Below, piece by piece: positions 8,165 through 29,652 of a DNA stretch of 64,000 nucleotides. The stretch's first letter is position 1; the number at the start of each line of letters is the position of its first letter. Below the pieces are notes generated by a model that saw only the letters and a program-made list of their open reading frames with translations, ran no database searches and was not told the origin of the DNA. A program made the translations under genes and the position numbers. Origin of the DNA: an uncultured Gammaproteobacteria bacterium (GTDB taxonomy: Bacteria > Patescibacteriota > Patescibacteriia > Magasanikbacterales > UBA922); the NCBI GenBank assembly GCA_964447765.1, contig CAYUTO010000001.1, positions 121,125 through 185,124 of the forward strand, given 5' to 3'.

Positions 8165-9370
8165 TTACTGTTGTTTTTCAATTTCCTCTGCAAGTAATTG
8201 TCGTCCTTTGACTGCCCACATCTCATGCCCACTATGTTCCATCTCTAGCGTATAATCAGTAATCAAGAGCCTTCTTTTTGCTTCATCTTTTTCTACCTCC
8301 ATTTCTAAGTATAATGTTAAAAAATCATACTGGGTTTGCAAGCGTGTTTCTTCGTCTTCCACCTGAAGCCACAAATTATTTTCAAACGCCCATACGACAA
8401 AGTCTTTATCGTTTTTCTTCTCCTCAATCATCGTAAGCAATGTTTCCTGCACTTCATCCGTTGTGGTTCCACTATAATCATTTTGCCCCAGATTATTTTT
8501 GATTCTACCAAGCGTATTATCTAGGTATTCACCCAGTTCATCTGGAATATACGGGATATCCGCGACCATATGCGCCGGACGCATCGCAAGGATAATATCA
8601 TCAGGACGTTCGGAAATTTTCATATTCGATAGCGCACTTACGAGTGCTTCTGCTTCATCAAATGATAAATCGGTTTTTACAATTTTATATACGACATAGT
8701 GAAGTGCCTTATCAATTTTTGATGGCTCATCTGGTACATACCCTACCAACATTTGTTTCAAAAATGTTGAATGATTGTGTGCGCGCTGTGGTTCACCAAT
8801 TTGGTACGCATGTCTCTGTCGAAGCCACTGGAGTGTTTCAGTAGTCGGAAGACGCAAACTTCGGAGTACTCCTAGAGTTTCTGAAAATCCCACAATCACG
8901 AGATAATCGGCTTTCATCCCAAGTATCTTTTCAATTTGATTAATACCATATTCAATTCCACCAAGCCCACATGCATTGGACACGTAATAATCAGATGACG
9001 TTGCGCCTGTACCTGGAGGAAGCGGTGAATACGTTCCACGAGGTACCGCAGTAATTGTCACCTTCTCCTCCTTAGTATCAATAGTAATCATCTGGATCAC
9101 GTCGCAGTGTCCACTGGTCTGCCCTACACGTTTATCAAGCCCAATCAAAAGCACACGCGCAATACCATCTTCACCAAATGGGTCCGCGTTATTATCACTC
9201 TCAACACGAGCGCGACGAGCATCAAGCACGCGATCAATCGCTTCTGTCCGAGCCTTCTCCATAGCCCCACCTGGGTCGCCTGCCCGAAACCACAAAATGT
9301 TCCTCCAGATATACCATCCAGTAAAACCAAGGACTAGGATAAAAATTGTAAATAGTAGTATTTTTTTCAT
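8165..9370 (-). CDS. LytR-CpsA-Psr (LCP) family cell-envelope polymer transferase
   Basis: N-terminal TM helix; LLIGLDKR...DVIQMITID...AVPRGTY motifs characteristic of LCP. Confidence 0.7.
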   Translation of the reverse strand: MKKILLFTIFILVLGFTGWYIWRNILWFRAGDPGGAMEKARTEAIDRVLDARRARVESDNNADPFGEDGIARVLLIGLDKRVGQTSGHCDVIQMITIDTKEEKVTITAVPRGTYSPLPPGTGATSSDYYVSNACGLGGIEYGINQIEKILGMKADYLVIVGFSETLGVLRSLRLPTTETLQWLRQRHAYQIGEPQRAHNHSTFLKQMLVGYVPDEPSKIDKALHYVVYKIVKTDLSFDEAEALVSALSNMKISERPDDIILAMRPAHMVADIPYIPDELGEYLDNTLGRIKNNLGQNDYSGTTTDEVQETLLTMIEEKKNDKDFVVWAFENNLWLQVEDEETRLQTQYDFLTLYLEMEVEKDEAKRRLLITDYTLEMEHSGHEMWAVKGRQLLAEEIEKQQ

Positions 9371-9442
9371 GACGCCTATTGTACTTAGTTATATCAAAAA
9401 ATACAACGCCACCTTGGACACTTATCTTGTTCAGGCTGTGGA

Positions 9443-10126
9443 TTATTTGATAGCAATTGGGTAGAGCGATTGTGCCCCCTTCTGTTCCCTATGGAAAAAT
9501 CCATATATCAATCTATACCCCCAATGGGTCAAAAATACCATACTTCCCGTATAGATAGGCCACAAAACGGTATATCCCCACTTAGGCAAAAATGAGACAC
9601 AGGGAGCAAACACACAATTTACATTCTCACCTACCGGAGTGAATAATACGACCGAGGTATACATAATAGCGCAATATAGGGCTGAATAGGATAATGATAT
9701 CAGACGTGGTTTTTCTTTGCGCAAAAACCACAAGGTACCTATGGGAAGCAACACATGCACCATAAGTGCAATAGTTTTTGCATAATTGAATGACCCTTCA
9801 AACATATAGCTTGTAATAGTCAACGCTTCGAAACCAAGTATATGACTTATAAATCCAATCAACCATAACATCTGAATCACGATTCCTACCTGCAAAATAC
9901 CTATCACCATTTGTTTATGCCCTTTGTAATATGCATATGAATATAGAATTGCCGCATGATTACAAAACCAAAAAATATCAGACCCTTTTTTTGGACTAAA
10001 CAGATATTCCGACAACACAAGGGCTTGGATTAAGATGAAAAACAAGATGTACCAAAAATTCTTTATTTTTTCTCCACCCCTTTCATTCATCGGAACGAGT
10101 ACATTGTCCGCATGAATTGTAAGCAT
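9443..10126 (-). CDS. Polytopic membrane protein, hypothetical
   Basis: Clean 227-aa ORF with around 6 hydrophobic helices. Confidence 0.4.
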   Translation of the reverse strand: MLTIHADNVLVPMNERGGEKIKNFWYILFFILIQALVLSEYLFSPKKGSDIFWFCNHAAILYSYAYYKGHKQMVIGILQVGIVIQMLWLIGFISHILGFEALTITSYMFEGSFNYAKTIALMVHVLLPIGTLWFLRKEKPRLISLSYSALYCAIMYTSVVLFTPVGENVNCVFAPCVSFLPKWGYTVLWPIYTGSMVFLTHWGYRLIYGFFHREQKGAQSLYPIAIK

Positions 10127-10367
10127 AGGTATGGGTTATACCCCTCTATATGTACCCTACACCCATATCTCACATATGTCTACCAGGATAGAGTGTAAAA
10201 CACCTTTACCTCTATATATCTCACACAAAAACTTATTTTATACAAAACATTTTTGTGATTGTATTGTTTTTAATAACTGCATTCGCACCCGCGATACTGA
10301 GAAGTACAACCATAGAAAAACTAGCCGCTGGAGAAAAACACACCCATTATAAAACTATCTAGATAAA

Positions 10368-13253
10368 CTATTCAACACTGCAGGCAATCGCATTTAGTTT
10401 CCCCCTCGTCTGTGGACCAATGTACCCGACACGATCAATGCCATGTTCTGCTTGGAATTTTATTACCGCTTCACGAGTAAGGGGTCCAAAAAAACCAGTT
10501 GGAGCATGCGACAAGTACGATGATTTATTAAGAAGCTCCTGAGCAATCGTAACCCATGTATTCTGCATCCCATACATCAAGGTTGTTGTGGTGTCTAGGC
10601 ATTTTTTTGCAGTATTTTCTAAAAGAGGTGGCGGCACTACCGTTGAAGATGCACATTGCTCCTCATGGATTTTCTTTATTTTTACAAGACTGGTTGTGTA
10701 GACATACCCAGTCCCCTTTGAGATACCCCATGGTGTTAAAATTTCTGCAACATTTTTCTCTTGCCAACGAACCACTGCATCAAAGTCTACCCGGTCGTAA
10801 AATCCATCAACAGATAATTGTGCATGTTCGTACGTATTTAAAAATTTCTCGAGCAATCGCACATCATCTGGATTATTTTGAAACCCAATACGAATAGGAT
10901 TTTTTAGATATAATTCAACCCCACAAGAAAGTCCTTTTTCCATCTGAACAGGGGTGAGTGTAATTGAATCAGAAATGACCAAAGTTCCACCTTCGAATGA
11001 ACGAAGTTTAATATACACCGTTTTCATTCCAGCCCCACTACTCAATCTATACTCAGTAGGATTTGCAAATGAGACAAATAAACCATTGGCAAAATTAGGA
11101 TCTTCGCTGATTACCATCTGCATTGCATTATCTGCATTGATAGTAAGAATCACGTTATTATCTGCCGTTTCTTCTGCACCACCATTTATAAGAAGTGCAC
11201 CAATTGTAGGCGTAACTCCAGGATGTGTGATCGGGACACTCGGAGGAATAAAAGTTCCCCCACCACTCTCCTGCATTTCATGACCAAACAATCCAAAAAT
11301 TGAAAAACTATCTGAAGTACAGCTAATAGTATTTATTGAAGCACTGACCGTGCAATCATCTAGAGCCCTCCATGCACTATTGTGGTAGTGGTACAGTAAC
11401 AAAGATGATTCATCCAGACCTTGAATTTCATCATTTGAATACGTATAGGTAATTGTTACTGGAGTATCAAACGAATCAAGAATAATTGAATCATTGATAA
11501 TCGCTTTTACATCAAACACAATGTCCCCTACTACAGCATCAGGGCCGGTCGGCATACCCGTATTTGGCAGTACAGTACCTTTCTGTAGCGCATGGATTTG
11601 AATGACTAGACTATCAGAGTCTTCGGTCACCCCCGTTGGAACAACAACCTGAATAGTCGATTTTTCTGTAGGAAGCGAAGCTGAACCTCCTGACACAACA
11701 TCCATAGGAGTGGACGTTGCACTTGAGGCACTAACAATTGATTCACCTAAACATCCAGTAGTTATAAATTCTTGCGCAGTAGAGGATACTGTATTACCCG
11801 ACGCATCACGCGACTGTACAGTATAGAAGTACGTCGTACAAGCAAGAAGTGGCGATAGATCTACTTGATGCGAGACTACTCGAGGACTTATATCAGATTC
11901 AGCTGTGCTTACGGTTAAATTTTGTGTTAACCCAAAATACACTCTACTTGATGCAAGCTCATTAGTACTCCATGAGATAGTAGTTGACGTCTGCCCAGGC
12001 GTCGAGGTCACATTAGTAATTACTGGTGCAGTAAAATCACCCGTAGTAAAATTCCATGTAGTACTATTAGAAATACCTGAGTACCCAACTAACGATACAT
12101 TAGTAAAGGCTGTGGACGACACAAGCACATAATATCCGGTTTGTTCGTCAAAAATGACTGAAGGATTTACCGTAATCGTATTAGTTCCACCTCCACTGAC
12201 CTGAGCACTCAAGACCGAAATTTGCTCGACCAAACTACCGTCAGAGCTCTTTCGAACTTCGATATACCCTGTACTTGTAACTACAGTACTACTAAATACC
12301 ATAGTCAAGTTTGGTTCAACCGCAATTCCAGTTGCATTATCTGCAGGTGTCCGAGAATTCAAGACTGGAGCACTCACCGTTGTGATTGATACGTTTTTTC
12401 CAGACACACCAGGCAAATTTCCTGGTTCCCCAAACTCTACCACATATCCTGAAATCGAATAATCACACGGCAAATCATTCCAGGTACCATTAGTCACATA
12501 GAATTGACCACAATCTTCACCTACTCCATGGTCATTTGGTTCTGAACCTGCCCAGTTTTCATAATTTCCGCCCACAGCACTTCCACCTGCAGCGCCTGAC
12601 CAAAACTGTGTCCCATTCTCAGGACCGGTAACCCATTTCCAATTCCCTTCTTGCACTGAGTCGCTTGCACCCATCCATCCATCCCCTTGGAGACGATCGG
12701 CAACAAAATCGTTTTCTTCTTGAGAGAGAATCGTTGCTAGATATCCCGGCACCCCGTACGCAGTCTGATTCTGAGCAGCGGTCACCGCACTGTTCCAGCT
12801 GATTACACCCGAAATAAATTTGTACAAATGTCCATTGTCTGCAAAAAAGACTTCACCCTGCTCTACCAACGAAACCTCAAGTGTGTCCGTGCCAGTGCCA
12901 CCACGTGTATAGGTAAGCGTCTGCAATGCTGCATTGATATTGGCGACTGTTCCACTAAATTGTAATGTGGAGCCAGTCTGCCCTCCCGTAAAGGTCAACC
13001 CGGTCACTGATCCGAAGGCAAGCGTACCATTAGTCACCAGCAACTTTACTGGTGTAGTAGAGGCGCTATTTCCTATCAATTGTATGTCAGTGACCTGAGT
13101 GGCTACCCCAACCGTCGTAGTAGCAGCATCTGGACCTGATATGGTAATTGAACCTGAAGCACTAACTCTATTAACTCCACTAAATAGTAAAATAAAGACA
13201 CTAATTCCAACTATAGTACTCGAAAAGATATACGCAACACGTTTATATAACAT
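10368..13253 (-). CDS. Large secreted surface protein with C-type lectin domain (EPN motif), Ig/FN3-like repeats and C-terminal peptidoglycan-binding domain
   Basis: Signal peptide present. CTLD signature WMGASD...EGNWKWV...NWAGSEPND...GEDCGQF...GTWNDLPC. C-terminal PG_binding_1-like segment (LTREAVIKFQAEHGIDRVGYIGPQTRGKL). Confidence 0.7.
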   Translation of the reverse strand: MLYKRVAYIFSSTIVGISVFILLFSGVNRVSASGSITISGPDAATTTVGVATQVTDIQLIGNSASTTPVKLLVTNGTLAFGSVTGLTFTGGQTGSTLQFSGTVANINAALQTLTYTRGGTGTDTLEVSLVEQGEVFFADNGHLYKFISGVISWNSAVTAAQNQTAYGVPGYLATILSQEENDFVADRLQGDGWMGASDSVQEGNWKWVTGPENGTQFWSGAAGGSAVGGNYENWAGSEPNDHGVGEDCGQFYVTNGTWNDLPCDYSISGYVVEFGEPGNLPGVSGKNVSITTVSAPVLNSRTPADNATGIAVEPNLTMVFSSTVVTSTGYIEVRKSSDGSLVEQISVLSAQVSGGGTNTITVNPSVIFDEQTGYYVLVSSTAFTNVSLVGYSGISNSTTWNFTTGDFTAPVITNVTSTPGQTSTTISWSTNELASSRVYFGLTQNLTVSTAESDISPRVVSHQVDLSPLLACTTYFYTVQSRDASGNTVSSTAQEFITTGCLGESIVSASSATSTPMDVVSGGSASLPTEKSTIQVVVPTGVTEDSDSLVIQIHALQKGTVLPNTGMPTGPDAVVGDIVFDVKAIINDSIILDSFDTPVTITYTYSNDEIQGLDESSLLLYHYHNSAWRALDDCTVSASINTISCTSDSFSIFGLFGHEMQESGGGTFIPPSVPITHPGVTPTIGALLINGGAEETADNNVILTINADNAMQMVISEDPNFANGLFVSFANPTEYRLSSGAGMKTVYIKLRSFEGGTLVISDSITLTPVQMEKGLSCGVELYLKNPIRIGFQNNPDDVRLLEKFLNTYEHAQLSVDGFYDRVDFDAVVRWQEKNVAEILTPWGISKGTGYVYTTSLVKIKKIHEEQCASSTVVPPPLLENTAKKCLDTTTTLMYGMQNTWVTIAQELLNKSSYLSHAPTGFFGPLTREAVIKFQAEHGIDRVGYIGPQTRGKLNAIACSVE

Positions 13254-16712: not shown

Positions 16713-17555
16713 TCAAAATAAAAATACCACGCTTGTAAATAATGCAAAACCCACAATGGTATTTAATAAAGGAAAATACCAGTACGCTTTTTGTACATGA
16801 CCCGGATAAAATAAAAGATATAAAGGAATAAAAAGATAGGCTAAGACCATAAAACCCAAAATAGATATGGGGAAATACAGCCATAAAACGAAAACTGATA
16901 TAAGCCATAACAACAGACACAAAACCAGCGATTGTCGAACACCTAGCACTACTGCGGTAGTAGAAAGACCTGCCTTGGCGTCGCTTGAGATATCAGGAAC
17001 TGCCGAGAATAAATGCATAGCCCAGGTCCAACAGCACACACCGATAATAATAGGCCAAGGAGGCAAATGCCCAACAACTTGTACATAACCAATAAAACCA
17101 GGCAGGCCATATAAAAGGTTTGATACAAAATCAATAAAAGGATGGGCTTTGAACCGTAGAGGTGGAGCACTATAAAAATAGGACAGGAAATAAAATAAGC
17201 ATAATAAGAAAGCTAGCAACACCGAACTCGCCGTAATTAAAACTCCCACATTCACCATAGTAATAACTAGTAGTGTAATGCGTAATTTGACTATTTGCGA
17301 AACCACCAACAACTGTTCCTGTGCACCTTTTTTTTGATTAAACTGGTCTGTATCACTATCATATAAATCATTTACCCCGTATAAAAAAATATTAGCCGGG
17401 ATAAGAAAAAATAATACGTAGACAAAAAATTGGGGGTTTAAAAAATCTTGCAGGCTAGTGATACCAGCCGCATACCCTACTACATAGGTCCCAGCTATAT
17501 ACAACCAAAATCTTGGCCGAGATAGTCTGTATAAGAATAATAGATAATTAATCAT
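16713..17555 (-). CDS. UbiA-family prenyltransferase (candidate lycopene elongase CrtEb/LyeJ-like)
   Basis: Polytopic membrane protein with the Asp-rich NDLYDSDTD motif (NDxxDxxxD). Embedded in the carotenoid cluster. Confidence 0.6.
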   Translation of the reverse strand: MINYLLFLYRLSRPRFWLYIAGTYVVGYAAGITSLQDFLNPQFFVYVLFFLIPANIFLYGVNDLYDSDTDQFNQKKGAQEQLLVVSQIVKLRITLLVITMVNVGVLITASSVLLAFLLCLFYFLSYFYSAPPLRFKAHPFIDFVSNLLYGLPGFIGYVQVVGHLPPWPIIIGVCCWTWAMHLFSAVPDISSDAKAGLSTTAVVLGVRQSLVLCLLLWLISVFVLWLYFPISILGFMVLAYLFIPLYLLFYPGHVQKAYWYFPLLNTIVGFALFTSVVFLF

Positions 17556-18613
17556 GTTGAACGGTTAAGATTAAAAGCGAGAAGGTCGTCCAAAAGCTGT
17601 TTTTGTTTGGAGTCAAATGGAAGCCCCGCAATAATTTTCTTAGCTTCCTTGATTTCTTTTTCTAAAAGAACCTGAATTTTGTCTATAACGCTATACTTAA
17701 CAATCAGTTCACGAACTTGCATTAACTGTTGTTTTCCAGCGGCAGGATTACCAAATATAGTTCCAAGCAATTTTTGCTCAGCTTTGGTAGCATGCTTATA
17801 CAAAAAATAATAATATAACGTCTGCTTACCTTCGCGAATATCTGACCCACATGGCTTACCGATTTTTTCCTGCTCCCCATACATACCTAATTCATCATCT
17901 TTAATCTGGAAAATAATTCCAATATGTTCTCCCAACTTCGCCAAACTGTTCACGGTATCAGATGCCACACCAGCAGCTATGCCGCCTAGCATAAAGGGCA
18001 ACGAGAATGTATAACGCGCCGTCTTATACCTATACAGTCGGAGGATTTCATGTATAGTCACCGATTGAGACACCGATCCAGCCCAGACATCTTGCATTTG
18101 CGCAAAACCAACCTTACATAATTCCTGAGAAAAAATTTGTACCAGCTTCTGACCTAACACTGCTTGTGAAACAGGCAGAGATGCCAACAGATCAAAGCTT
18201 AAAAATATCGCCACATCTCCAACACATACACCGAGAGATTCACCTAGATGATCCGCGTGCTTGCTTTTACTGGCATGTGCCAACATCTGATATTGGCGAT
18301 AAACAGTAGGCTGACCGCGACGTAAACCATCACAATCCATAATATCATCATGTATAACTAGGGCTGTATGGACAATCTCAATTGCGGCCGCCAGTTTCTG
18401 ACATGTTTCATCTGGCTTTTTTTGCGCCAATTCATAAGCCATATACACTAATCCTCCCCGAACCATTTTACCCTGACTGGCTGTGGCACGAAGTCTACGC
18501 AAGGCATCTACACTCCACCGATTTACGGGTTTATACAAAGCAATCTGATGAGTTACATACTCATTTAAAAATGGTGCAATTGACTGTTTGGTCGCGGCGA
18601 AATATTCTTTCAT
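17552..18613 (-). CDS. crtE: Polyprenyl (GGPP-type) diphosphate synthase
   Basis: First Asp-rich motif VIHDDIMDCD and second FQIKDDELG. The stop overlaps the next gene by 4 nt. Confidence 0.7.
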   Translation of the reverse strand: MKEYFAATKQSIAPFLNEYVTHQIALYKPVNRWSVDALRRLRATASQGKMVRGGLVYMAYELAQKKPDETCQKLAAAIEIVHTALVIHDDIMDCDGLRRGQPTVYRQYQMLAHASKSKHADHLGESLGVCVGDVAIFLSFDLLASLPVSQAVLGQKLVQIFSQELCKVGFAQMQDVWAGSVSQSVTIHEILRLYRYKTARYTFSLPFMLGGIAAGVASDTVNSLAKLGEHIGIIFQIKDDELGMYGEQEKIGKPCGSDIREGKQTLYYYFLYKHATKAEQKLLGTIFGNPAAGKQQLMQVRELIVKYSVIDKIQVLLEKEIKEAKKIIAGLPFDSKQKQLLDDLLAFNLNRST

Positions 18614-19428
18614 ACAAGATTACAAATTAACTGCTTCACAATACGAGCTTTAGATGGTTTTACTTTTGTTTTAAAAATAATAAATGGATCACTCTCAATA
18701 ACCTTGGCTGTGTAACGATACATATCGGCCGCGGTTTTTATAGGTAAGAGAGTACGACGAGAAAAATAACTAAAACCAACTTCTCCTTGCTTTTGCCAGT
18801 CACGGTAGCGCTCCAATTCTTGCTGGATTACATTTTTAAATGCTTGCGGATTAGCACGTGCTGTAGCTTCGGTAAGATTCTCGAATCCGAATGGACGAAG
18901 TACTTCCAGGGGAATATATTGTCTCCCCAACCCAATATCTTCGGAAATATCTCGAATAAAATTAATATACTGAAATCCCCGACCCAGTAACTGCGCAGTC
19001 TCGTATGATTCAGCTGGCAGACCAAGCAATTTGGTCATAACAAGACCGATAACTTCAGCTGATCCATAAATATACGTACACAGCTCTTCAAGAGTATGGT
19101 AATTTTTTTTCGAAATATCAGCGGTCATGGCTGCTAGAAATGATTCTATCCAGGAAGCAGGAATCTCGCGACGACGCATTACCTCTACAAACGAATCAAT
19201 AATAATATCGTTTGCAGACGTACCGCTCAAAGCCCGAGCATATTTTTGTTTAAAATCTAAAAATGCTTCTAGGCGAGGTGGAACCACATCCACCATATCA
19301 TCTGCTACGCGCACAAAAGCATAAAACTTAAAAATATCGTCACGTACCTCTGCAGGAAAAAATAAACTGCTCGTAAAAAAAGTCTTACTCCCCTGTTTAA
19401 ATATCTGATAAATCTTTTTATCCACCAT
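18610..19428 (-). CDS. crtB: Phytoene synthase
   Basis: Squalene/phytoene synthase motifs (YIYGSAEVIGLVM, GRGFQYINFIRDISEDIGLGRQYIP). Confidence 0.75.
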   Translation of the reverse strand: MVDKKIYQIFKQGSKTFFTSSLFFPAEVRDDIFKFYAFVRVADDMVDVVPPRLEAFLDFKQKYARALSGTSANDIIIDSFVEVMRRREIPASWIESFLAAMTADISKKNYHTLEELCTYIYGSAEVIGLVMTKLLGLPAESYETAQLLGRGFQYINFIRDISEDIGLGRQYIPLEVLRPFGFENLTEATARANPQAFKNVIQQELERYRDWQKQGEVGFSYFSRRTLLPIKTAADMYRYTAKVIESDPFIIFKTKVKPSKARIVKQLICNLV

Positions 19429-20890
19429 AATTATTTTTGATATTACTAGCTACGAGTTGCGACGAGATAAGACACATTGGCATACCAATACCAGGATGCG
19501 TATACTGACCCGTATAATATAAATTAGCAACCTTTTTACTCTGATGGCGAGGCCGAAAGACTGCGGTTTGCATGAGAGTATGACTTAGGCCTAAAGCCGT
19601 ACCTTTATAGGCATTAAATAACTCTTTAAAATCACGATGAGAAATAATTTTTTGTACTACCGGATTATGCAGGTCTTCCCCCAACAAGCCTCCTAAATGA
19701 GTAAGTATCTTTTCCGCATATCGCGCTCGCAGATCATCTGAATCTTCTAAGCCCGCAGCTACGGGAACTAACACAAACAAAGCTTCGCCTCCCGGTGGCA
19801 CGATCGTCGAATCAGTTTTTGAAGCACAGGAGACGTAATACGAAGGATGCTCTGGCCACGACGGATCTTCAAAAATAGTATCAAAATGCTTCATCCAGTC
19901 ATGATCAAAAAATAAACTATGATGTTCAAGCCCCTTGATTTTACGATCATACCCTAAACACAGGATAAAAGCAGAGGGTGCTACGGTACGCTTCTCCCAA
20001 TATGACTCGCTATATGTTTGAAATTTCTTATCCAACAAAGCAGTTTCGGTGTGATGATAGTCAGAATTAGCAATAACAATATCTGCCTCTACCAAAGTTC
20101 CATTAACGATCACTCCACGCGCGCGACCATCGACTACTTCTATACGCTCAACTGGACTATTATACGTCATACGTGTGCCATATGACTCAGCCAACGTTAC
20201 CAATGCCTGCACGACGCGATTAATACCACCTTCTGGATACCACACACCCAAATTAAAATCTATGTGTGACATAAGCGAATAAATCGCGGGCGTATTTTTG
20301 GGAGCTCCTCCTAAAAATACCATACTATATTCCAAAATCTTTCGCAGCTTATCATTTTTAAAATATCTTTTGGTATATTTGTCCAATGTTTCAAACACAT
20401 GAAGTTTTCTGCCTTCAATAAGCATCTGGCGATTAAAAAAAGATAACAGCGATGTATAATCTTTATACAAAAAATCTTTCATTGATACATCATATTGATA
20501 CTTGGACTGAGCCAGATAACGAGATAGTTGAAGAGCTGCTCCCGGCTCAATGGATTCAAAAAGGTCCATGTTTTTTTGTAGATCTGCGGAAATATCAACA
20601 TAATCGTCTTTTCCATAAAAAATACGATAGGCCGGATCCAAACGTTTAAGGGTAAAAAAATCTTCCGGCTTTTTATCAAATTCCGCAAAAAACTTTTCAA
20701 ATACATCGGGCATTAAGTACCAGGAAGGACCGAGGTCAAATAAAAACCCACTCTCTTGATAGATACTTGCTCTACCCCCGGGCTGACTATTTTTCTCAAA
20801 AACGGTCACCGCAAAACCATCTTTGGCCAGCAGTGCCGCGGACGAAAGACCACCAAATCCAGCGCCAATAATAATTGCTTTTTTAGGCAT
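19418..20890 (-). CDS. crtI: Phytoene desaturase (CrtI family)
   Basis: N-terminal FAD fold IIGAGFGGLSSAALLAKDGFAVTVFEKNSQPGGRA. 490 aa. Confidence 0.75.
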   Translation of the reverse strand: MPKKAIIIGAGFGGLSSAALLAKDGFAVTVFEKNSQPGGRASIYQESGFLFDLGPSWYLMPDVFEKFFAEFDKKPEDFFTLKRLDPAYRIFYGKDDYVDISADLQKNMDLFESIEPGAALQLSRYLAQSKYQYDVSMKDFLYKDYTSLLSFFNRQMLIEGRKLHVFETLDKYTKRYFKNDKLRKILEYSMVFLGGAPKNTPAIYSLMSHIDFNLGVWYPEGGINRVVQALVTLAESYGTRMTYNSPVERIEVVDGRARGVIVNGTLVEADIVIANSDYHHTETALLDKKFQTYSESYWEKRTVAPSAFILCLGYDRKIKGLEHHSLFFDHDWMKHFDTIFEDPSWPEHPSYYVSCASKTDSTIVPPGGEALFVLVPVAAGLEDSDDLRARYAEKILTHLGGLLGEDLHNPVVQKIISHRDFKELFNAYKGTALGLSHTLMQTAVFRPRHQSKKVANLYYTGQYTHPGIGMPMCLISSQLVASNIKNNYGG

Positions 20891-21674
20891 ACATATATTC
20901 TCTTATAGCTTGACTAAATTGCCGTCTGCAGATAAATAACAATACTATGCCGAGCATAAACGGCACATATAATTCTAAAAATAACGCTAGGGATAACCAA
21001 AGAATACATGAAAAATATAAACTAATAGCAAGGCTTACTGGAGGCACCACACCATTGGCAATTTTTTTGACATACATATAAAAAATACATGACCCGACCA
21101 AACTGGAAACTATCCAACCAGCATAGTTTACCACCGGAACGCCATAATACATGCCTGGCTCTACCCACTTCCACAACCCCAATGTCACGGCTACCGGATC
21201 TACCAATAAATCTATCGATACCATAACTAGCGCAGTCAAAACTAATTTAAACAACCATCGTATACGAAATCCGCTCACAATCCCGACACTACCCAGCAAA
21301 ATAGGCACCCACACAAATGGCGTACTTAGCGGGACGGTACTACCAACCATAATACCTGTCTTCGCATTATATACAAAATGTCCATACGGAATACCAAACT
21401 GTATCGCCAAAGCTTCAATAACTATTGCAAGGATACCTAAAATAAACAGTATCAATAGACCTTTTGTCCAGCCTAACCACTTAACTGTTACAAAGGCTGT
21501 TGGGAGAAATAATACCAACGTAAATAACGTTGAAACTATGGCCATACTGTCATCAAACGGGACACGGGCAGTAAAAAAAGCTATCGTAACTAGTACGATA
21601 TGGACCAAGATAATGGTGAAGTGTTTGAGGGTAATATGATTACAAATTAACGTTTCAAGCCTAGGGTCGGGCAT
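20883..21674 (-). CDS. Carotenoid-biosynthesis membrane protein (CruF-like hydratase / PF04240-like)
   Basis: 7-8 TM helices. IEALAIQFGIPYGHFVYN resembles the E..G..G.P.G.Y.Y motif of carotenoid 1,2-hydratase-like proteins. First gene of the crt operon. Confidence 0.45.
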   Translation of the reverse strand: MPDPRLETLICNHITLKHFTIILVHIVLVTIAFFTARVPFDDSMAIVSTLFTLVLFLPTAFVTVKWLGWTKGLLILFILGILAIVIEALAIQFGIPYGHFVYNAKTGIMVGSTVPLSTPFVWVPILLGSVGIVSGFRIRWLFKLVLTALVMVSIDLLVDPVAVTLGLWKWVEPGMYYGVPVVNYAGWIVSSLVGSCIFYMYVKKIANGVVPPVSLAISLYFSCILWLSLALFLELYVPFMLGIVLLFICRRQFSQAIREYMYA

Positions 21675-21959: not shown

Positions 21960-24900
21960 CTATCTTTGCAATTCTTGTCGAGTCAGTGGTCCTACATACC
22001 CACTCGCTGGAGAAATTCCTTTCGCAATCTGAAACGCAATCACTGCTTGACGAGTCAATGCTCCAAAATAGGTAGTCTCATTTCCGAGAGATCCATATCC
22101 ACTCGCAACAATAGGAAATCCGTTTGTGTTGAGATAGACTTGTAGCCCTTTGACATCTTCCCCACTCATGCCAAATTCCAAGTCACGCTTCAATAACGTA
22201 GATGTCGGTGACACGCTTGTTGTACCAGAAATACAGCCGAGATATTTTCTTATGGAAACATCAAATAATCCTGTTGCAGCAAATGAGTGTTTGTTTTGAA
22301 ATACCTTCAACGCTTGCTCAGTCAATGACCCAAAATATGCAGTTTCTTGCCCAGGAGATCCGGGACCTACGATCGCTACAGGCGTACCTATATTATTCAA
22401 ATATTGTTGTAACGCCATAGCCGATGGACCATAATATCCTTTTTTCATATCTACCACAAACAGTGGAGACGGACAGTTTTTTGTTTCTTTTTCATTAAGA
22501 GGAACAACTGGTGACGGATTGGACATTTTTTCCTCTTCGTCACTTTGTGTTGCTCGCAACGTTAATTCCACGCGATTATTCCACAACGCAGTAAAAGTAA
22601 CTGATAGATCAGAGACACCATCACTATCGAGATCCATATCTGCCAACGCACCAACCTTCAATACAATTGTACGCGGAGTAGAAGCAACCTGGATTGTCAC
22701 TTCTTTTTGTTCCGACAAATCAAGGTCTGTAATGGTGAGACGATGTTCTCCCAATTTCCCACTTGAACTTTCAACGAGTGAAAATAGCGCAGTAGACTGA
22801 ATATATACAAGTAGATTAACACCTTCACCAGAAATTTCACCAATATGTTTTGTTGCGTACATATCGACAGATTGATCCGATGCACCACTTCCCTCACCAC
22901 CCGGCACAATAAATGTACCTCCTCCACGAGTTGTTGGCGCAGTAGTATCAACAACGACACTGGTCGTTGCCGCACTTGAAATGTTTCCGGTATTATCCAA
23001 TGCAAAAACACTATAATAATATCTACCATCGTCAAGTGATGTCTGAGTAATACCAGTCGTAGTGGTGGCGCTTGTGACCGCAGTCCCACTACTCACTGTT
23101 GCTGGGTATGACGAAGTACTTCTTCGCACGGTAATTGATACAAAGTCACTTGCCGTTGGATTGGTCCAGGAGAGCGTAATATTAGATTCTGCGACAGATC
23201 CTGTAAGTGAGGAAACAGCACTTGGTGCATTGGTATCTGATTGTTCCCATGCCAAAAAAGCATAGCCGGAATTGATTGCCGGATCCATTTCCCACGTACT
23301 TGACGTTCCTCCATCGTCGTATGGTGTGCCCACAAAATCCCATACGGTATCGAGACCACTGGTATCTGTGTCTGTAAACGTTGCCAACACTTTCATTTGT
23401 GCCGTTGTTTTTCCAGTACCTTTGCCGGTATCGCTCTGACCCGAAGTTGTACTATCGTAAAACGAACTATCAACTATTCCTTCTCTATATTCTTCAATCT
23501 CTTCATCATACACTTGGTTCCGACCAACCAATCCACCAACATTGGTTGAACCAGATATTGCACCGGTTGCATACGAATACCGAATCGTACCACCATTGTA
23601 ATTATCCCCCACTAGTCCTCCTACTCGATCGCCTCCGGTTACATCCATGGATGAATAACAGTTGATTACGGTCCCATTGTTGTTTCCGGTAATTCCTGCA
23701 AGATAATAACTTAATCCTACCCCCGTGATCGTACCCTGTGAACTAGCTCGAGTTATTGTTCCTATGTTACTCCCTGCAATACCTCCTATAGCGGCATCTC
23801 CCACCAGTTCTCCTGAAAATGACACATTGCTCATCATACCATTGCTGTGTCCGGCAATTCCTCCGACAATAAAATCTCCGGTAAAATCTGCCTCTGTCAC
23901 GCGCACATTGCTTATTGAGCCACTATCGTCAACATATCCAAAAAGGGAAACATGCTCTTCAGCAGGTCTATCGATATAGAGCCCGGATATCGTATATCCA
24001 TTCCCGTCGAGACTACCGGTAAATGTGTTAGCATTATCACCGATAGGATCAAATCCTGCTCCACCATTCCATCCGGTCGTACCAGACGCATCAATATTAT
24101 TTGAAATTGTATAGTTATCAGTTCTATCTACTGCGATCAATTGCAATTCTGCCAACGTAGTAATAGCTGACCGATGCTCCATTTGCAAATGCGGATACCC
24201 TGCCATAATCCAATCGCCAATTGTGCCATCCCCCGCAACCGTAAAATCCCAGTCCGAGAATGTACTTTGCGTCATCATTTGTGCCGTTGTTTTTGAATTA
24301 CTAAACGACTCTGCACTTGCTGTACTTCGTGTGGCGTCAAAATATGCACCAGTGACGTTGGGCGTGACTCCGCCATCAACACTTCCAATGATTCCATTTG
24401 TATCTGACCCTGAAATGATGCCCGATGCATACACATTTTCAATCGTGCCGGTAGAAAAACGACCAATGATTCCACCCAGATACCCCCCACCTACCAAGTT
24501 AACATTTGAATAGGAGCTCGTAACAATAGCTGTGGCTTCTGGCGTATACCCTGCAAGCCCTCCACAATAGGCGCCCGGCGTACAATCAAGCGACCCGCTT
24601 GCGTAGACGTGCGTAAGCGTTCCTTCAAGATAAGAGGCAAACGCTCCGGAATATGTCGATGCATCATAATCAATATCAACCAGACCAAGGTTTTTTACTA
24701 CACCACCCGCAGCAATACGTAAAAATAAACCCGCATAGGTTGTACTTACATGGATATTGCTCACCTCATATCCCTGTCCATCAAGTGTCCCTGTGAACGG
24801 CGAACCATAACTCCCAATCTGGGTAAAAGTCGGTACTCCCGAACAATCAATATCATTGATAAGCACATAATCTTCGGTCAAATCATCAGCAATATCTTCT

Positions 24901-25016
24901 AGCCCACTACACGTACTGATATTGGTAAGCGCAAACGCCGTACGTGGCACGAAGAACGCAATTGCCATAACAACAACTGCAAGGTACACATATACACGAG
25001 GAAAAATCATACACAA
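21960..25016 (-). CDS. Large secreted surface protein with GLUG-like repeats and two C-terminal peptidoglycan-binding domains
   Basis: Signal peptide. Repeated F.GTLDGQGY.ISNL / GGLVG / GGIAG units. Two PG_binding_1-like segments at the C-terminus. Confidence 0.6.
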   Translation of the reverse strand: MCMIFPRVYVYLAVVVMAIAFFVPRTAFALTNISTCSGLEDIADDLTEDYVLINDIDCSGVPTFTQIGSYGSPFTGTLDGQGYEVSNIHVSTTYAGLFLRIAAGGVVKNLGLVDIDYDASTYSGAFASYLEGTLTHVYASGSLDCTPGAYCGGLAGYTPEATAIVTSSYSNVNLVGGGYLGGIIGRFSTGTIENVYASGIISGSDTNGIIGSVDGGVTPNVTGAYFDATRSTASAESFSNSKTTAQMMTQSTFSDWDFTVAGDGTIGDWIMAGYPHLQMEHRSAITTLAELQLIAVDRTDNYTISNNIDASGTTGWNGGAGFDPIGDNANTFTGSLDGNGYTISGLYIDRPAEEHVSLFGYVDDSGSISNVRVTEADFTGDFIVGGIAGHSNGMMSNVSFSGELVGDAAIGGIAGSNIGTITRASSQGTITGVGLSYYLAGITGNNNGTVINCYSSMDVTGGDRVGGLVGDNYNGGTIRYSYATGAISGSTNVGGLVGRNQVYDEEIEEYREGIVDSSFYDSTTSGQSDTGKGTGKTTAQMKVLATFTDTDTSGLDTVWDFVGTPYDDGGTSSTWEMDPAINSGYAFLAWEQSDTNAPSAVSSLTGSVAESNITLSWTNPTASDFVSITVRRSTSSYPATVSSGTAVTSATTTTGITQTSLDDGRYYYSVFALDNTGNISSAATTSVVVDTTAPTTRGGGTFIVPGGEGSGASDQSVDMYATKHIGEISGEGVNLLVYIQSTALFSLVESSSGKLGEHRLTITDLDLSEQKEVTIQVASTPRTIVLKVGALADMDLDSDGVSDLSVTFTALWNNRVELTLRATQSDEEEKMSNPSPVVPLNEKETKNCPSPLFVVDMKKGYYGPSAMALQQYLNNIGTPVAIVGPGSPGQETAYFGSLTEQALKVFQNKHSFAATGLFDVSIRKYLGCISGTTSVSPTSTLLKRDLEFGMSGEDVKGLQVYLNTNGFPIVASGYGSLGNETTYFGALTRQAVIAFQIAKGISPASGYVGPLTRQELQR

Positions 25017-25543: not shown

Positions 25544-25873
25544 ATAGCACTATCATAGTTTTTATAATTTTAATGTCAAGAAAAAACAAGCTTTAATAGC
25601 TTGTTTTTTGCTCGCGAGGAGTTCCTTAGTTGGAACACTATAGAGCAAACTGCTAGAAAGTGGATTACCACCTTCAGAAGATATGATTAGGGAATTGCTG
25701 TGGCCTATTCTAGCTGAAATTCTTCGTGTTCACAATACCTCATAGAGACTGGAACACTGCAAATCCTAACACCCATTTTGTTCTAGTGGTCTTTTTTACG
25801 CTCAACTCTGCATAATTTGACACTATTTTTTATTACTGGTAAAATTTTACCAGTAATTTATTACCTACAAAAT

Positions 25874-28800
25874 ATGTCTACCATCGGCTCTCGTATTACC
25901 TCCATTAGAAAAGCGAAGAAAATCACGCAGGAAAAACTGGCAAAATCTGCTGGGGTTGATTATAACACGCTCAGAAAAGTTGAAACAGGAAAAACTAAAA
26001 ATCCTGGTTCAGAATTTATTGAAAAAATTTCTCTTGCCCTGAGTGTGACGACAGATCAGCTAATAGAGCAACCAAAGCCGGAGGTCAAAGGCGGTGACAT
26101 GCTCCCCTTTATGCAATTACCCCACGGTAATTTTGAGAAAATGATACTGACAATCCTTCAGTCTGATAATGGTAGGTATACAGATATAGAGCCGTTTGGA
26201 GGTAGGGGTGATAAAAATAGAGACATACTTGCAGTTGAAATTATCGGACAAAAACCCGCCGCCAGTAAGACTTTATTTCAAGCGAAGCGTCATGAAAAGA
26301 CAACATACACGACTCTTGAAGACGAATTGATTGGTATAAAGACTCACTTTTTTGATCAACCAAATCCTGCAACTCCAATAGAAAAAATTGTTTTTTGTTT
26401 GGCTGATACACCCTCCCCCACCATAAAAGATAAACTAAAACTCTTTGCTCGAGAAAATAATTTGCCCGAGCCAATCTTTTGGGATGCCCGAACAATCGAT
26501 GTCATGTGTAAAAGAAGCAATCAAATTATCAATGAGTTTTTTGGCGGTCATATTGTGGAGGCAATAGAAGGTGTATCACAAGTTATGACAGAAGTCTTAA
26601 ATATAAAAGAAATGGTCCAAAAAAATACTTCCTCTACCAAACCAGATTCTACACTAACATCAGTAAGTTCTAAAGGCGACGCTCAAATGCAAAAAGCTCG
26701 AAGGCTTATTGGTGAAAAAAAGTATTCTGAAGCAAAGGATATACTTTTGACCATTAAAGAAACAGTTGAAAATTCGAGCGACCATGAACGACTAAAAAAA
26801 CTCTACAACAATCTCGGCCTATGTCTCTCCAAAGAAAACAACTCAGAAAGCCTAAAACAGAGTCTAGATTATCTGTACATGGCTATCGATCTCAAGGTTG
26901 CAAAACAAAATCTTATCGAGGTGATAATAAATAAAGAGGTCAAGGATAAGTATGACGATGCGCTCAAATATGCGCAGGAGCTTTTAGCCGAAGAACCAGA
27001 TAATTTGGACTATGCAGCGTTATACATACATGCACTAAATGCGAAGGATAAAATGCCGGATGCTAAAAAATTTATCGAAACTGACAAAAAAATAAAAAAT
27101 CGTATACAAGAAAATGAAGCTCTTTCAGTAGCTGTTTCCTTAGTCTATTTCATACTCCAAGAGGTTGAAAAAGCTAGTCTTTATGTAGACAATGCTTTGG
27201 AAATTTTTCCTGAATCATGGAGATTGAATAGATTTAAGGGTACAGCATTAATGCTTGAAGCTGAAAAAGGAATGCTCTCAAGAGATATTGACATCATGCC
27301 CTTCTTGAAAACAAATTTAGTCGAGAAGGCAGTGGAACATTTCGAAAAATCCCTGGATCTTGCAATAAATGATGGAGCACCCGAGTTTATGCACAACCAA
27401 ATTCGGTTATGTATATACAGCGCCATGATTTCTTTACGTAGAGGTCAATCGAGTAAATTCAAAGATGCTTACTTAAAAACACTCGAAAAAAGCATCGATG
27501 ATGGCCAGCTCAGTGAAACGGAGTCAAAGGCTAAAGTTGTGGCAAAAATATCTCAAATGCTTGAATGCGAAAGAAATTTTGAGACTGCTTACACTATCTT
27601 CAAAGAAGAAATTGTAGAGAAATATAATGCAACTTACAAAACTATTCTGGATATGGCGCACAAATTTTTTCAGCACGGTGCACCGGAATATTCGATTAAA
27701 TTGCTCGAACCACTACATGATGAGGCGAAGGAGAACAACGATTTTGAGTACTGGGCAGTTTTGAGCACATGCCATGCCTTACTTAATGACAAAAACTCAG
27801 CTCTACGGACAATGAACGAAGCACAAAAGCATTTTTCTTCTTTGACAGATATTGAGTTAAAAAGAAGAATACTTTCACACTACAGCGCATTAACTGCTCG
27901 CTATCACGATAACAGCGAAGCTGAGCGCATGTTCAGAAGTATGACTGAATTGCAAAATATCACACCAGAGGAAACAATTGTTCAGCCAATAGAGGCTCTG
28001 ACTTCTGACGGTCACCTTACTCAGGAAATGAAAGACTTTTTTGAGAACAATAAGAAGGATTTTATAAAGAAAAAAGAAAAGTTTGTTAATACTCCAATTC
28101 CAGTATACTTCTTGGAGAGAATTTTCAGTAGAAATTTCCCTGAAGCCCTAGAAATTCCACGGAATAACTATGATTTTGAATTTGTAATACATTACAATGC
28201 CCTAGATAAGGAATTTTTACATAGGCAGGTTGAAATTCTTGAAAAGAATGACACATTTGTCATTGATTATAGTGCCCTGCTAAATTTTTCTCGCACTGGG
28301 CAATTGGGATTATTTAGTGCACTTGGCAAAAAGGTATTAGCCTCTGAATATCTATTATTCCAAGTACAACAAGATCTAATGGTTTCCGAAAATCACACAT
28401 TACGGAACGCATGGAATTTTCTCCGCGGAGGAAATGTACAACTTTTTCCCTACATTGAGATTGAGAAAGGCGCTTTGCCCAAACTGATTAAAGACTTTTT
28501 CAGCGAATGGATGCCTTGGTTTGCACAAGAAATAGTATACTGTTTAAAAAATAAGACCCCTCTTATAACCGACGATCTACGCATGCTCAGTTACTTGAAC
28601 TCAGAAGAAGTTGGACTAGCTTCCATAAATAGCTTTATTTTTTTTCAAACAGGACTCATAACCGGCGCTCTTGATAAAAAACAGTATAGCCTTGTATTAG
28701 GTGATCTTGCAGACATGTTCTATCATTTTATTGCATTCAATGGAGAAGATTTGTTACATATTGTCGCAGACGATACTAACAAAATTAGAAATGGCAGTAC

Positions 28801-29209
28801 CCAAGATTGGATGAGTTTTAAAGAGCATGGTGAAAACTTCAAGGTCTCTAGAAGGGCTTACCATTTATTGAATCAAGTTCACTTACCTGGATCAGAGGTA
28901 ACAAGCTTTTTAGCAGTGTCCTTAGATTTTCTTGAGCGCCTGATTAAGCTCAGCTTTACTGAAGATGAAAAAATGGACTGGGTTCTATTTATGACAAATT
29001 TTTATGGAGGTTTTCTTTCTGAAGAAAATTTTAATACCCAACGAGAGCAGTTCACTGTTCACTTAGAGTTCGTTATTAGAGCGTGGGTTCTGATCTTTCA
29101 ATCTTTACCCAAGAATAGACCTGACATCTTAAAAAAGGCAGGTAAAATCAAGTACGAACATCTACGTTTAGCCATTGAAAATTCTTTAAGAAAAGGAATG
29201 GAACTATAA
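25874..29209 (+). CDS. Multidomain protein: XRE-type HTH, Mrr-like PD-(D/E)xK nuclease domain, TPR-like repeats and a ~450-aa unknown C-terminal domain
   Basis: HTH: ITQEKLAKSAGVDYNTLRKVETGK. Mrr_cat-like: FGGRGDKNRDILAVE...FQAKRH (D-E-K). The track start at 25817 is a TTG; the ATG at 25874 is preferred. Confidence 0.6.
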   Translation: MSTIGSRITSIRKAKKITQEKLAKSAGVDYNTLRKVETGKTKNPGSEFIEKISLALSVTTDQLIEQPKPEVKGGDMLPFMQLPHGNFEKMILTILQSDNGRYTDIEPFGGRGDKNRDILAVEIIGQKPAASKTLFQAKRHEKTTYTTLEDELIGIKTHFFDQPNPATPIEKIVFCLADTPSPTIKDKLKLFARENNLPEPIFWDARTIDVMCKRSNQIINEFFGGHIVEAIEGVSQVMTEVLNIKEMVQKNTSSTKPDSTLTSVSSKGDAQMQKARRLIGEKKYSEAKDILLTIKETVENSSDHERLKKLYNNLGLCLSKENNSESLKQSLDYLYMAIDLKVAKQNLIEVIINKEVKDKYDDALKYAQELLAEEPDNLDYAALYIHALNAKDKMPDAKKFIETDKKIKNRIQENEALSVAVSLVYFILQEVEKASLYVDNALEIFPESWRLNRFKGTALMLEAEKGMLSRDIDIMPFLKTNLVEKAVEHFEKSLDLAINDGAPEFMHNQIRLCIYSAMISLRRGQSSKFKDAYLKTLEKSIDDGQLSETESKAKVVAKISQMLECERNFETAYTIFKEEIVEKYNATYKTILDMAHKFFQHGAPEYSIKLLEPLHDEAKENNDFEYWAVLSTCHALLNDKNSALRTMNEAQKHFSSLTDIELKRRILSHYSALTARYHDNSEAERMFRSMTELQNITPEETIVQPIEALTSDGHLTQEMKDFFENNKKDFIKKKEKFVNTPIPVYFLERIFSRNFPEALEIPRNNYDFEFVIHYNALDKEFLHRQVEILEKNDTFVIDYSALLNFSRTGQLGLFSALGKKVLASEYLLFQVQQDLMVSENHTLRNAWNFLRGGNVQLFPYIEIEKGALPKLIKDFFSEWMPWFAQEIVYCLKNKTPLITDDLRMLSYLNSEEVGLASINSFIFFQTGLITGALDKKQYSLVLGDLADMFYHFIAFNGEDLLHIVADDTNKIRNGSTQDWMSFKEHGENFKVSRRAYHLLNQVHLPGSEVTSFLAVSLDFLERLIKLSFTEDEKMDWVLFMTNFYGGFLSEENFNTQREQFTVHLEFVIRAWVLIFQSLPKNRPDILKKAGKIKYEHLRLAIENSLRKGMEL

Positions 29210-29262
29210 TTCACTAATTTGATTTTTTAACTGATAAATTGTATAGTGTGTGAACAATTAAT

Positions 29263-29553
29263 ATGATCACAAAAAAGCAAAAACTCGAATGGGTAATTAT
29301 AGTGTTATTAACTTTTATCTGTATCGGATGTCTATTCCTTGTTAATAATAGTAAAGGAATGATACAAATCCCTGTTTTTAAAATCATCTACGAAAGCGCG
29401 CTGATTGCTACGCAATTTGTGTATGGATTTTGTAAAATGTTTGCAATACTTATGTGGTATACAATTACTCACAGCTGGATTACCATACTAATAACTTGTG
29501 CATTAATCGCGCTGTTTATCACTAATATTTTTTACCGTCGCACCAAAGATTAA
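29263..29553 (+). CDS. Small membrane protein, hypothetical
   Basis: 96-aa ORF with three hydrophobic helices. Confidence 0.3.
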   Translation: MITKKQKLEWVIIVLLTFICIGCLFLVNNSKGMIQIPVFKIIYESALIATQFVYGFCKMFAILMWYTITHSWITILITCALIALFITNIFYRRTKD

Positions 29554-29572
29554 TGAGGTAGTTTGAATAATA

Positions 29573-29605
29573 AAATAATACGACCTATAGGTCGTATTAT
29601 TTTAT
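29573..29605. terminator. Bidirectional rho-independent terminator
   Basis: aaaataatacgacctataggtcgtattatttt perfect palindrome. Confidence 0.6.
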
Positions 29606-29607
29606 TA

Positions 29608-29652
29608 GCTCCCATACTGGGACGAGTTTCGAACTGTTTTAGCTAATTCTAC
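29608..29652. repeat. Conserved ~45-nt 3'-UTR motif, copy 2
   Basis: 37/41 core identity to copy 1. Lies between the stop of gene 29706..30296 and a terminator hairpin. Confidence 0.6.

Follow-up and report, generated by a model that had tools for sequence, protein, structure and literature searches.

A predicted wall-held C-type lectin of a Candidatus Magasanikbacteria cell and its large patescibacterial family

It is a central open question how ultrasmall bacteria of the candidate phyla radiation (CPR; Patescibacteria) recognise and hold partner cells. The stretch of DNA analysed here (64,000 nucleotides; contig CAYUTO010000001.1 of assembly GCA_964447765.1, positions 121,125 to 185,124; hereafter the window) raises this question through one gene, which encodes a modular protein with a C-type lectin domain (CTLD) and a C-terminal pair of peptidoglycan-binding domains: is this protein a sugar-binding adhesin, and what would hold it to the cell? 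With a probability of roughly 60%, we read it from its sequence as a Sec-exported, wall-held, Ca2+-dependent adhesin of a Candidatus Magasanikbacteria cell, directed at sugars of the mannose, glucose, N-acetylglucosamine (GlcNAc) and fucose type. Its family is a concrete candidate for partner recognition, one that is widespread and readily tested, with a compact domain, a textbook Ca2+/mannose-type site and natural EPN and QPD variants of that site.

The C-type lectin domain and its sugar site

The first-pass annotation of the window, made without database searches, had described a 961-aa protein carrying a series of CTLD motifs. The open reading frame was recovered at 10368–13253 on the reverse strand, and each quoted motif was located within it: WMGASD (aa 193–198), EGNWKWV (aa 202–208), NWAGSEPND (aa 233–241), GEDCGQFY (aa 245–252), and GTWNDLPC (aa 256–263), with EPN at window positions 12534–12542 and WND at 12474–12482. 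The limits of the domain had to be moved, since the span first proposed (12410–12820) corresponds to aa 145–282, and the true start lies near aa 134, giving a span of about 12414–12854. Pfam Lectin_C (PF00059) was matched at aa 169–266 with an E-value of 4e-12 and 47.3 bits (gathering cut-off, 22.6), and the best PDB sequence match obtained with phmmer was rat mannose-binding protein A (MBP-A; E = 1e-11). As a sequence match, the CTLD assignment is far above chance.

The resemblance to MBP-A was closest around the sugar site, where EPNDHGVGEDC...NGTWNDLPC is nearly identical to EPNDHGSGEDC...NGLWNDISC of MBP-A, with equal spacing. In the alignment, E238, N240, E246, N259, and D260 correspond to the Ca2+-site-2 and sugar ligands E185, N187, E193, N205, and D206 of MBP-A, and D198, E202, D241, and D247 to its site-1 residues D161, E165, D188, and D194. 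A family search of 5.8 billion proteins returned more than 531 matches, from which the top 120 (all with E < 1e-187) were taken for the alignment to which all counts out of 120 refer. These relatives had the same architecture and were approximately 45–65% identical overall. Residues E238, P239, N240, E246, D247, C248, W258, N259, D260, C263, D198, and E202, together with the WxG block, were invariant in all 120, while the site-1 residue D241 varied (D in 72, Q in 36, N in 9, and E in 3). By these alignments, a large family of bacteria strictly conserves the full sugar site known from metazoan C-type lectins.

The predicted fold was in agreement with the sequence match. An AlphaFold2 (AF2) model of aa 133–284, computed with the 120-sequence family alignment, had a mean predicted local distance difference test score (pLDDT) of 94.4 and a predicted template modelling score (pTM) of 0.89, and contained the two helices and the strands expected of the CTLD double-loop alpha/beta fold. 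The 50 matches listed by Foldseek against the PDB were all C-type lectin carbohydrate-recognition domains (CRDs), including those of CEL-I, CD23, MGL, aggrecan, SRCL, a snake-venom lectin, and CL-K1, with E-values of about 1e-9 to 5e-8 and target-normalised TM-scores of 0.68–0.85. A structural model had been proposed with the first-pass annotation as the check on its claim; the model obtained has the CTLD fold, and the Ca-coordinating residues are present by alignment.

The domain had also been called canonical and long-form, and each term held in part. The fold, the EPN triplet and the Ca2+ ligands do correspond to the canon, but its four cysteines are reduced to C248 and C263, equivalent to the C2–C3 pair. 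The C1 position aligns to A160, which is invariant across the family, and the C4 position to V272 (manual alignment with 'VVCEF' of MBP-A), occupied by V in 92 relatives and by A in 25. A beta0–beta1 hairpin was predicted in the model (strands 2–5 and 10–20), but the C0/C0' cysteines of the long-form hairpin are absent from the CTLD sequence, and the modelled domain is long-form-like in topology only. The fold is common to rat MBP-A (1msb/2msb), CD23, DC-SIGN/SIGNR, CEL-I, and the present domain, which has in common with MBP-A also the pattern EPNDHGxGEDC...NGxWNDxxC, the WxGxxD 'WIGL' block and the C2–C3 disulfide pair. Unlike the animal CRDs, it is bacterial, lacks the C1–C4 disulfide and carries two insertions, one of 5 residues after helix 1 and one of approximately 16 residues (GPE..FW.G..GGS) in the long-loop region; unlike MBP-A, it has no collagen/coiled-coil neck and lies between cadherin-like and Ig-like stalk domains.

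Most members of the CTLD superfamily bind no sugar, and a type II antifreeze protein was among the sequence matches of the domain in the PDB search, which would suit a domain for protein, ice or mineral recognition. Non-sugar CTLDs, however, characteristically lose the ligands of Ca2+ site 2, and here all five are present at MBP-A spacing and invariant in the 120 relatives. Natural variation of the site points in the same direction. In a species scan with one genome per GTDB species, 85 relatives were found and 80 kept, and 69 loci passed the motif filter; EPN/EDC/WND occurred in 66 of these 69, and EPN with ENC in one. The two others, both labelled Saccharimonadia, had QPD instead of EPN, one with EDC and one with ENC (L066, gene at 9605–12079, and L074, gene at 9275–11140). 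A change from EPN to QPD is the classical mannose-to-galactose specificity switch of C-type lectins, and such variants are therefore expected of a working sugar site with tuned specificity. A non-sugar function of the domain is very improbable.

A further identity to be weighed was that of the variable protein of a diversity-generating retroelement (DGR), as two published sources report CLec-fold targets of DGRs from CPR/Patescibacteria (PMC11661182, PMC8144416). When the CTLD and the entire gene were compared with the window by blastn, no template repeat appeared, and the gene was rejected as a DGR target. No reverse transcriptase was seen among the 30 larger open reading frames scanned, a scan that was not exhaustive, and the residues of the ligand site show no hypervariability but are invariant. 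DGR targets, moreover, use a different CLec family (FGE-sulfatase-like), whereas the domain here is of the Lectin_C (PF00059) type; a DGR variable protein is accordingly an exceedingly improbable explanation. In the literature searched, 'C-type lectin' and CPR co-occurred only for DGR variable proteins, and neither a PF00059-type lectin in CPR/Parcubacteria nor a characterised bacterial Lectin_C adhesin was found. The CTLD itself falls within Pfam Lectin_C as an ordinary member, seen by standard annotation, and the architecture is one of known modules.

Family spread, wall retention and proposed role

The comparison across relatives that had been suggested with the first-pass annotation included an exhaustive HMMER search with the two-domain head (aa 36–285), which yielded 606 representatives at E <= 1e-30 and 3,623 at E <= 1e-10. 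In the closer family, the core consists of a signal peptide, a cadherin-like domain, the CTLD, a Big_5 domain and an FN3-like domain. Conservation extends over aa ~40–658 and ends exactly after the strand ...FSIFGLFG, beyond which the tails diverge. Those relatives for which the sources gave a name were called 'peptidoglycan-binding protein' or 'Ig-like domain-containing protein' and came from metagenome-assembled genomes (MAGs) of Patescibacteria/Paceibacteria. These searches place the lectin in a large and uncharacterised family of Patescibacteria. The HMMER matches of the head also included giant proteins of 2,000–6,000 aa with a cassette of cadherin-like domain and CTLD. In such giant repeat adhesins (e.g., P0124, P0142, P0125, and P0219), the same two-domain head was matched end to end at 37–57% identity; they contain tens of repeats, whereas the lectin described here has a compact single head and a peptidoglycan-binding tail and belongs to a Patescibacteria-centred family.

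Labels in the species scan were mostly Paceibacteria, Saccharimonadia, Roizman-, Zambryskii-, Kaiser-, and Gracilibacteria, and Minisyncoccia, with a few weaker relatives labelled Arcobacteraceae, Actinomycetota, Limnocylindria, Kapaibacterium, and Bifidobacteriaceae. Close relatives were also present in MAG records titled 'uncultured Gammaproteobacteria' (L001, L002, L008, L029, L038, L042, and others), among them a 1.6-Mb 'chromosome' and a 1.3-Mb contig. Because the labels of this MAG series look unreliable, the few non-CPR labels are not yet readable as spread beyond the CPR. The assignment of the window itself to the CPR was borne out: its FtsX shares 95% identity with a protein from Candidatus Magasanikbacteria, the other named FtsX matches were overwhelmingly Magasanikbacteria or 'Patescibacteria group' (bar one 'uncultured bacterium'), and Patescibacteria predominate among the lectin's named relatives. 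A protein identical to the 961-aa lectin (P0001) is present in public data on a 290-kb contig.

Export is predicted from an N-terminal Sec signal peptide, the sole strongly hydrophobic stretch of the protein (no other hydrophobic segment was found), with a cleavage site placed by the AxA rule; similar N-termini of the Sec type were present in 113 of the 120 family members. The C-terminal PG_binding_1 domain reported earlier proved to be present in two copies, two stretches scoring 54–60 bits against a Pfam cut-off of 23, at the C-terminus of a protein with a predicted signal peptide. Among the 120 relatives, at least 94 tails contained PG_binding_1 and 10 had LysM instead; neither was annotated in 16, some of which have tails that are still PG_binding_1-like. 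This exchange of LysM for PG_binding_1 fits a tail whose job is wall binding. A C-terminal LPXTG with hydrophobic segment and charged tail occurred in none of the 120, and sortase anchoring was rejected for the lectin, whose sole LPNTG (aa 562) is internal and unconserved. With two predicted PG_binding_1 domains and no sortase signal, the link of the lectin to the wall is read as non-covalent. The description 'peptidoglycan-anchored' is thus supported by the signal peptides and the PG_binding_1/LysM tails in the sense of a wall tether, but not of a covalent one.

A second large exported protein is encoded in the window at 21960–25016 on the reverse strand (1018 aa; GLUG and Big_13 domains). 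It ends in the same PG_binding_1 pair, 39% identical to the tail of the lectin, and the two proteins have nothing else in common. Because a second surface protein of the same genome carries this tail, it can be regarded as a generic module for retention at the cell's own wall, which suggests that PG_binding_1 is the general surface-retention module of this genome. The finding bears on a different reading, in which the lectin would be a secreted bridge or effector with its PG_binding_1 or LysM tail on host peptidoglycan and its CTLD on a host wall glycan. PG_binding_1 and LysM bind peptidoglycan whatever its source, the protein has neither a covalent anchor nor a transmembrane segment, and a possible self-cleaving joint of the ZU5/GAIN type (discussed below) could free the head. 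Against such a bridge speak the presence of the same kind of tail on another, unrelated large surface protein from this genome and the fact that CPR cells possess a peptidoglycan wall of their own, and we consider it improbable.

In the preferred reading, that of a wall-held adhesin, Sec export would bring the protein to the surface of the Magasanikbacteria cell, and the PG_binding_1 pair would hold it non-covalently to the cell's own peptidoglycan. The chain of ZU5/GAIN-like, FN3-like and Big_5 domains would project the head outward, over roughly 20 nm if extended, and the head would consist of the cadherin-like domain and a CTLD with two intact Ca2+ sites. The EPN...E...WND site would bind sugars with adjacent equatorial 3-/4-OH groups (mannose, glucose, GlcNAc, and fucose) through Ca2+ coordination, in the mode of collectins and DC-SIGN. 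The likeliest role would then be adhesion to glycans on the envelope of a partner or host cell, or on a matrix. The fold, the ligand residues with their invariance, the domain architecture, the spread of the family and the identity of the organism come directly from the analysis; the Ca2+ dependence, the sugar class, the orientation on the wall and the attachment to a host we infer.

Such a role is made plausible by published work on other members of the CPR, and experiments with cultivated Saccharibacteria point to glycan recognition and several adhesins. Transposon sequencing of Southlakia indicated that epibiotic growth requires multiple adhesins, and that essential envelope proteins have glycan-binding domains (PMC10633639). 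Host binding by TM7x was halved by soluble mannose or glucose and nearly abolished by rhamnose, and the authors of that study state that the lectins responsible have yet to be identified (PMC11623550). Surface proteins with lectin and FN3 domains are common in CPR genomes (PMC5220378). The earlier statement that surface lectins are a recurring theme in the CPR therefore holds in general (PMC5220378, PMC10633639, PMC11623550), but for concanavalin-like, VCBS, and pilin-borne lectin-like domains, not for C-type lectins, which are mentioned in none of the three papers. The adhesins of cultivated epibiotic Saccharibacteria (the lectin-like minor pilins PilX1/PilX2 of TM7x and the essential VCBS/FN3/dockerin envelope proteins of Southlakia) have the same presumed task, recognition of partner glycans, but differ in their L-type, PLL-type lectin-like, and VCBS folds and in their display on type IV pili; none of them is a C-type lectin.

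The ligand could also be one of the cell's own envelope glycans (an S-layer glycoprotein or wall polysaccharide) or the community matrix of extracellular polymeric substances, rather than a specific host, and the protein would then serve to organise the envelope, to aggregate the cells or to retain them in a biofilm. A broad specificity for mannose, glucose, GlcNAc, and fucose is typical of EPN-type sites, and the sugar-site residues were invariant over very diverse classes of Patescibacteria, which slightly favours a common generic ligand over lineage-specific host glycans. Genes for an LCP wall-polymer ligase and for glycosyltransferase and flippase functions are present in the window as well, although they are unlinked to the lectin gene in other genomes. 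A stalk of five to six domains leading away from the wall is, on the other hand, more typical of outward-reaching adhesins, the natural QPD variants suggest some tuning of specificity, and no synteny with envelope-glycan genes was found. On balance, binding of own or matrix glycans is plausible but unlikely.

Several points weigh against the reading as a host-directed adhesin. The missing C1–C4 disulfide and the insertion of approximately 16 residues in the long loop could mean that the extended binding site is changed or occluded, and the geometry of the Ca2+ ligands is taken from alignment. For every member of the family, sugar binding and host attachment are likewise deduced from sequence. 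Magasanikbacteria are not known to live as episymbionts. Counted from the N-terminus, the CTLD comes second and does not form the very tip of the protein, PG_binding_1 could in principle bind the wall of the partner rather than the cell's own, and the gene order around the lectin gene (see below) gives no operon logic, so that no pathway is indicated by conserved neighbours. Labelled head domains could be used as probes for the partners of uncultivated lineages.

Stalk domains and a candidate self-cleavage site

The N-terminal domain (aa 36–133) had no Pfam match at E <= 10, and a search of PDB sequences with its family profile was also empty. Its phmmer matches were 28–31 repeats arrayed in tandem in two giant proteins, P0124 and P0142; these repeats belong to Pfam Cadherin_4, Cadherin_5, and Big_9. 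Solely on account of these matched repeats the domain is called cadherin-like here; it is probably a beta-sandwich of the cadherin-like/Ig-like type. Of the FN3/Ig-like repeats reported in the first-pass annotation, the Ig-like part was confirmed by a Big_5 domain above its cut-off, while the FN3-like domain remained just below (Pur_ac_phosph_N, 29.3 bits with a cut-off of 30; fn3, 13.8 bits with a cut-off of 25).

The last domain of the conserved core (aa 506–658) also had no Pfam match at E <= 10; its family profile found no ZU5/GAIN chain among PDB sequences, and a profile search in the 5.8-billion protein set returned only nine fragments. Its AF2 model (pLDDT 93.7) was matched best by Foldseek to the ZU5 domain of ankyrin (3f59; E = 1.3e-4) and to UNC5b (3g5b), and further to the GAIN domains of BAI3, latrophilin, and GPR110 and to the NLRP1 complex 7crw. 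Over all ZU5/GAIN matches, E-values ranged from 1e-4 to 8e-2 and query-normalised TM-scores from 0.45 to 0.60, which is moderate. The best fold matches thus fall among the autoproteolytic ZU5/GAIN/FIIND domains (those of ankyrin, UNC5, PIDD, NLRP1/CARD8, and the adhesion G-protein-coupled receptors, GPCRs), and the domain carries an invariant F-S pair, with S/H/N/G at position -2, in the turn between its last two strands. It departs from them in the lack of sequence-level similarity, in the moderate TM-scores and in that neither a UPA nor a seven-transmembrane (7TM) domain follows. The 'CxH' motif described for the superfamily (PMC3482391) was not evident.

The F-S pair was identified as F650-S651, model residues 153–154, between strands 145–152 and 155–162, a turn that we take to be the position and motif type at which several ZU5/GAIN/FIIND relatives cleave themselves. 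Known self-cleavage motifs are SF↓S in NLRP1/CARD8, HF↓S in PIDD/Nup98, and HL↓T in GAIN domains, the arrow marking the cut, after which a beta-strand holds both fragments together. In the family, F650 and S651 were invariant (120/120), with S in 68, H in 21, N in 20, and G in 11 members at position -2; upstream, H622 was conserved in 118 and E615 in 119 of the 120. The FS-strand motif was matched in 47 of the 69 species-representative loci, always as F-S, and 21 of the 22 loci without it were re-tested by blastp, with no detectable copy of the domain. The ZU5/GAIN-like domain is hence present in about two thirds of the wider species set.

Zhang et al. (2012; PMC3482391) predicted ZU5-superfamily autopeptidases among large surface proteins of bacteria that also carry adhesion modules, and the idea of bacterial ZU5 self-cleavage therefore has a precedent. 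The domain was tentatively considered as a bacterial ZU5/GAIN-like autoprotease cutting at F650↓S651, a possible but doubtful assignment. If it were true, head and stalk (aa 33–650) would be joined to the wall-binding tail solely by a single embedded beta-strand (SIFGLFG), the arrangement seen in adhesion GPCRs and NLRP1/CARD8, forming a two-piece tether that could be separated by force, for breakaway or shedding. Such a breakaway joint would sit between the ultrasmall episymbiont and its partner, and would give the GAIN/FIIND mechanism an extracellular counterpart in prokaryotes, within a family of hundreds of members.

Between this domain and the tail lies a linker with a beta-rich insert (aa 660–781), which only part of the family has (alignment gap fraction 0.25–0.88) and for which no Pfam match was obtained. 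A 'GGGTFI-P' motif in this region, common to the lectin and the neighbouring 1018-aa protein, was dismissed as mere linker, a GGG run being present in only 22 of 118 relatives. Many relatives (e.g., P0008, P0010, P0012, and P0022) have a two-cysteine module, FGC-D-x-A-x-NYN...C-x-Y, before PG_binding_1 and after the ZU5-like domain; it has no Pfam match, and the lectin of the window carries the Ig-like 'INGGA...KTVYIK' insert instead. The positions of all features of the gene are listed in Table 1.

Table 1. Features of the lectin gene and its product, in window coordinates (-, reverse strand; arrow, predicted or candidate cleavage point).
Feature	Residues (aa)	Window positions	Strand	Basis or remark
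Secreted modular surface lectin gene (predicted)	961 aa + stop	10368..13253	-	Open reading frame list
Predicted Sec signal peptide (K4, R5, hydrophobic core aa 6-24, VSA↓SG)	1-32	13158..13253	-
N-terminal conserved domain, motif GTVANINAALQTLTY...GTDTLEV	36-133	12855..13148	-	Conservation equal to that of the CTLD
C-type lectin domain (CTLD/CRD)	134-280	12414..12854	-	Pfam, MBP-A match, AF2, Foldseek
Ca2+ site 1, D198 and E202 (WMGASDSVQEG segment)		12648..12662	-	MBP-A alignment
EPNDHGVGEDC: E238, N240, E246 (site 2), P239, D241, D247 (site 1), C248	238-248	12510..12542	-
WNDLPC: N259, D260 (site 2 and sugar OH ligands), C263 (pairs with C248)	258-263	12465..12482	-	Compare MBP-A WNDISC
Big_5 bacterial Ig-like domain	294-404	12042..12374	-	Pfam PF13205, 33.1 bits, cut-off 23.6
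FN3-like domain	414-492	11778..12014	-	Below Pfam cut-offs; conserved family-wide
ZU5/GAIN-like beta-sandwich, last conserved core domain	506-658	11280..11738	-	AF2 and Foldseek
F650-S651, candidate autoproteolysis site (DSF↓SIF)	650-651	11301..11306	-	Turn between last two beta-strands
Variable linker and beta-rich insert (GGG-rich, then INGGAEET...KTVYIKLRS)	660-781	10911..11276	-
Two PG_binding_1 domains (best stretch aa 901-953)	~782-961	10371..10910	-	Pfam PF01471

Gene neighbourhood and other features of the window

In the window, the lectin gene is accompanied by genes for an LCP-family protein, a membrane protein, a CNNM/CBS protein and DUF6629 and by a carotenoid-type operon, neighbours that are functionally unrelated. 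In the 69 other genomes, neither these (LCP, membrane protein, CNNM/CBS, DUF6629, carotenoid genes) nor GreA occurred beside the lectin gene. An ECF sigma factor was found nearby in 2 of the 69 loci and the PG_binding_1/GLUG giant in 6, and the commonest neighbours elsewhere were an ABC ATPase and a two-component system, each in the range of 11–16 loci at a median distance of approximately 3–5 kb; consistent linkage was seen for none. A scan for promoters and terminators around the gene gave fewer matches than in shuffled sequences and was uninformative. The window contains three tRNAs, and no rRNA was found in it.

The carotenoid-type operon (16713–21674, reverse strand) encodes a UbiA prenyltransferase, a polyprenyl synthetase, a phytoene/squalene synthase, a phytoene-desaturase-like amine oxidase and Caroten_synth (PF04240), and a quinone-dependent dihydroorotate dehydrogenase is encoded at 52883–54001. 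Isoprenoid pigment and quinone-linked functions of this kind seem unusual in a reduced CPR genome.

A low-GC island extends over approximately 28000–38800, with a GC content of 0.28–0.38 compared to about 0.40 elsewhere. Its genes encode a 929-aa AAA_21/AbiEii-like protein, a DUF2779/RNase_H-like protein, a ResIII helicase and an N6/N4 DNA methylase, and it is probably a horizontally acquired defence or restriction island. A large serine recombinase (546 aa, with XisF/Ccr-like matches) lies at 46022–47673, its 3' end overlapping a tRNA-Gln on the opposite strand (47602–47673); the overlap may be the point at which a mobile element integrated, and the region so bounded perhaps includes the low-GC island. 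Adjoining the island, a 1130-aa protein at 25817–29209 on the forward strand, with an N-terminal HTH_3 domain (Xre-type) and TPR repeats, is a putative and unusually large regulator.

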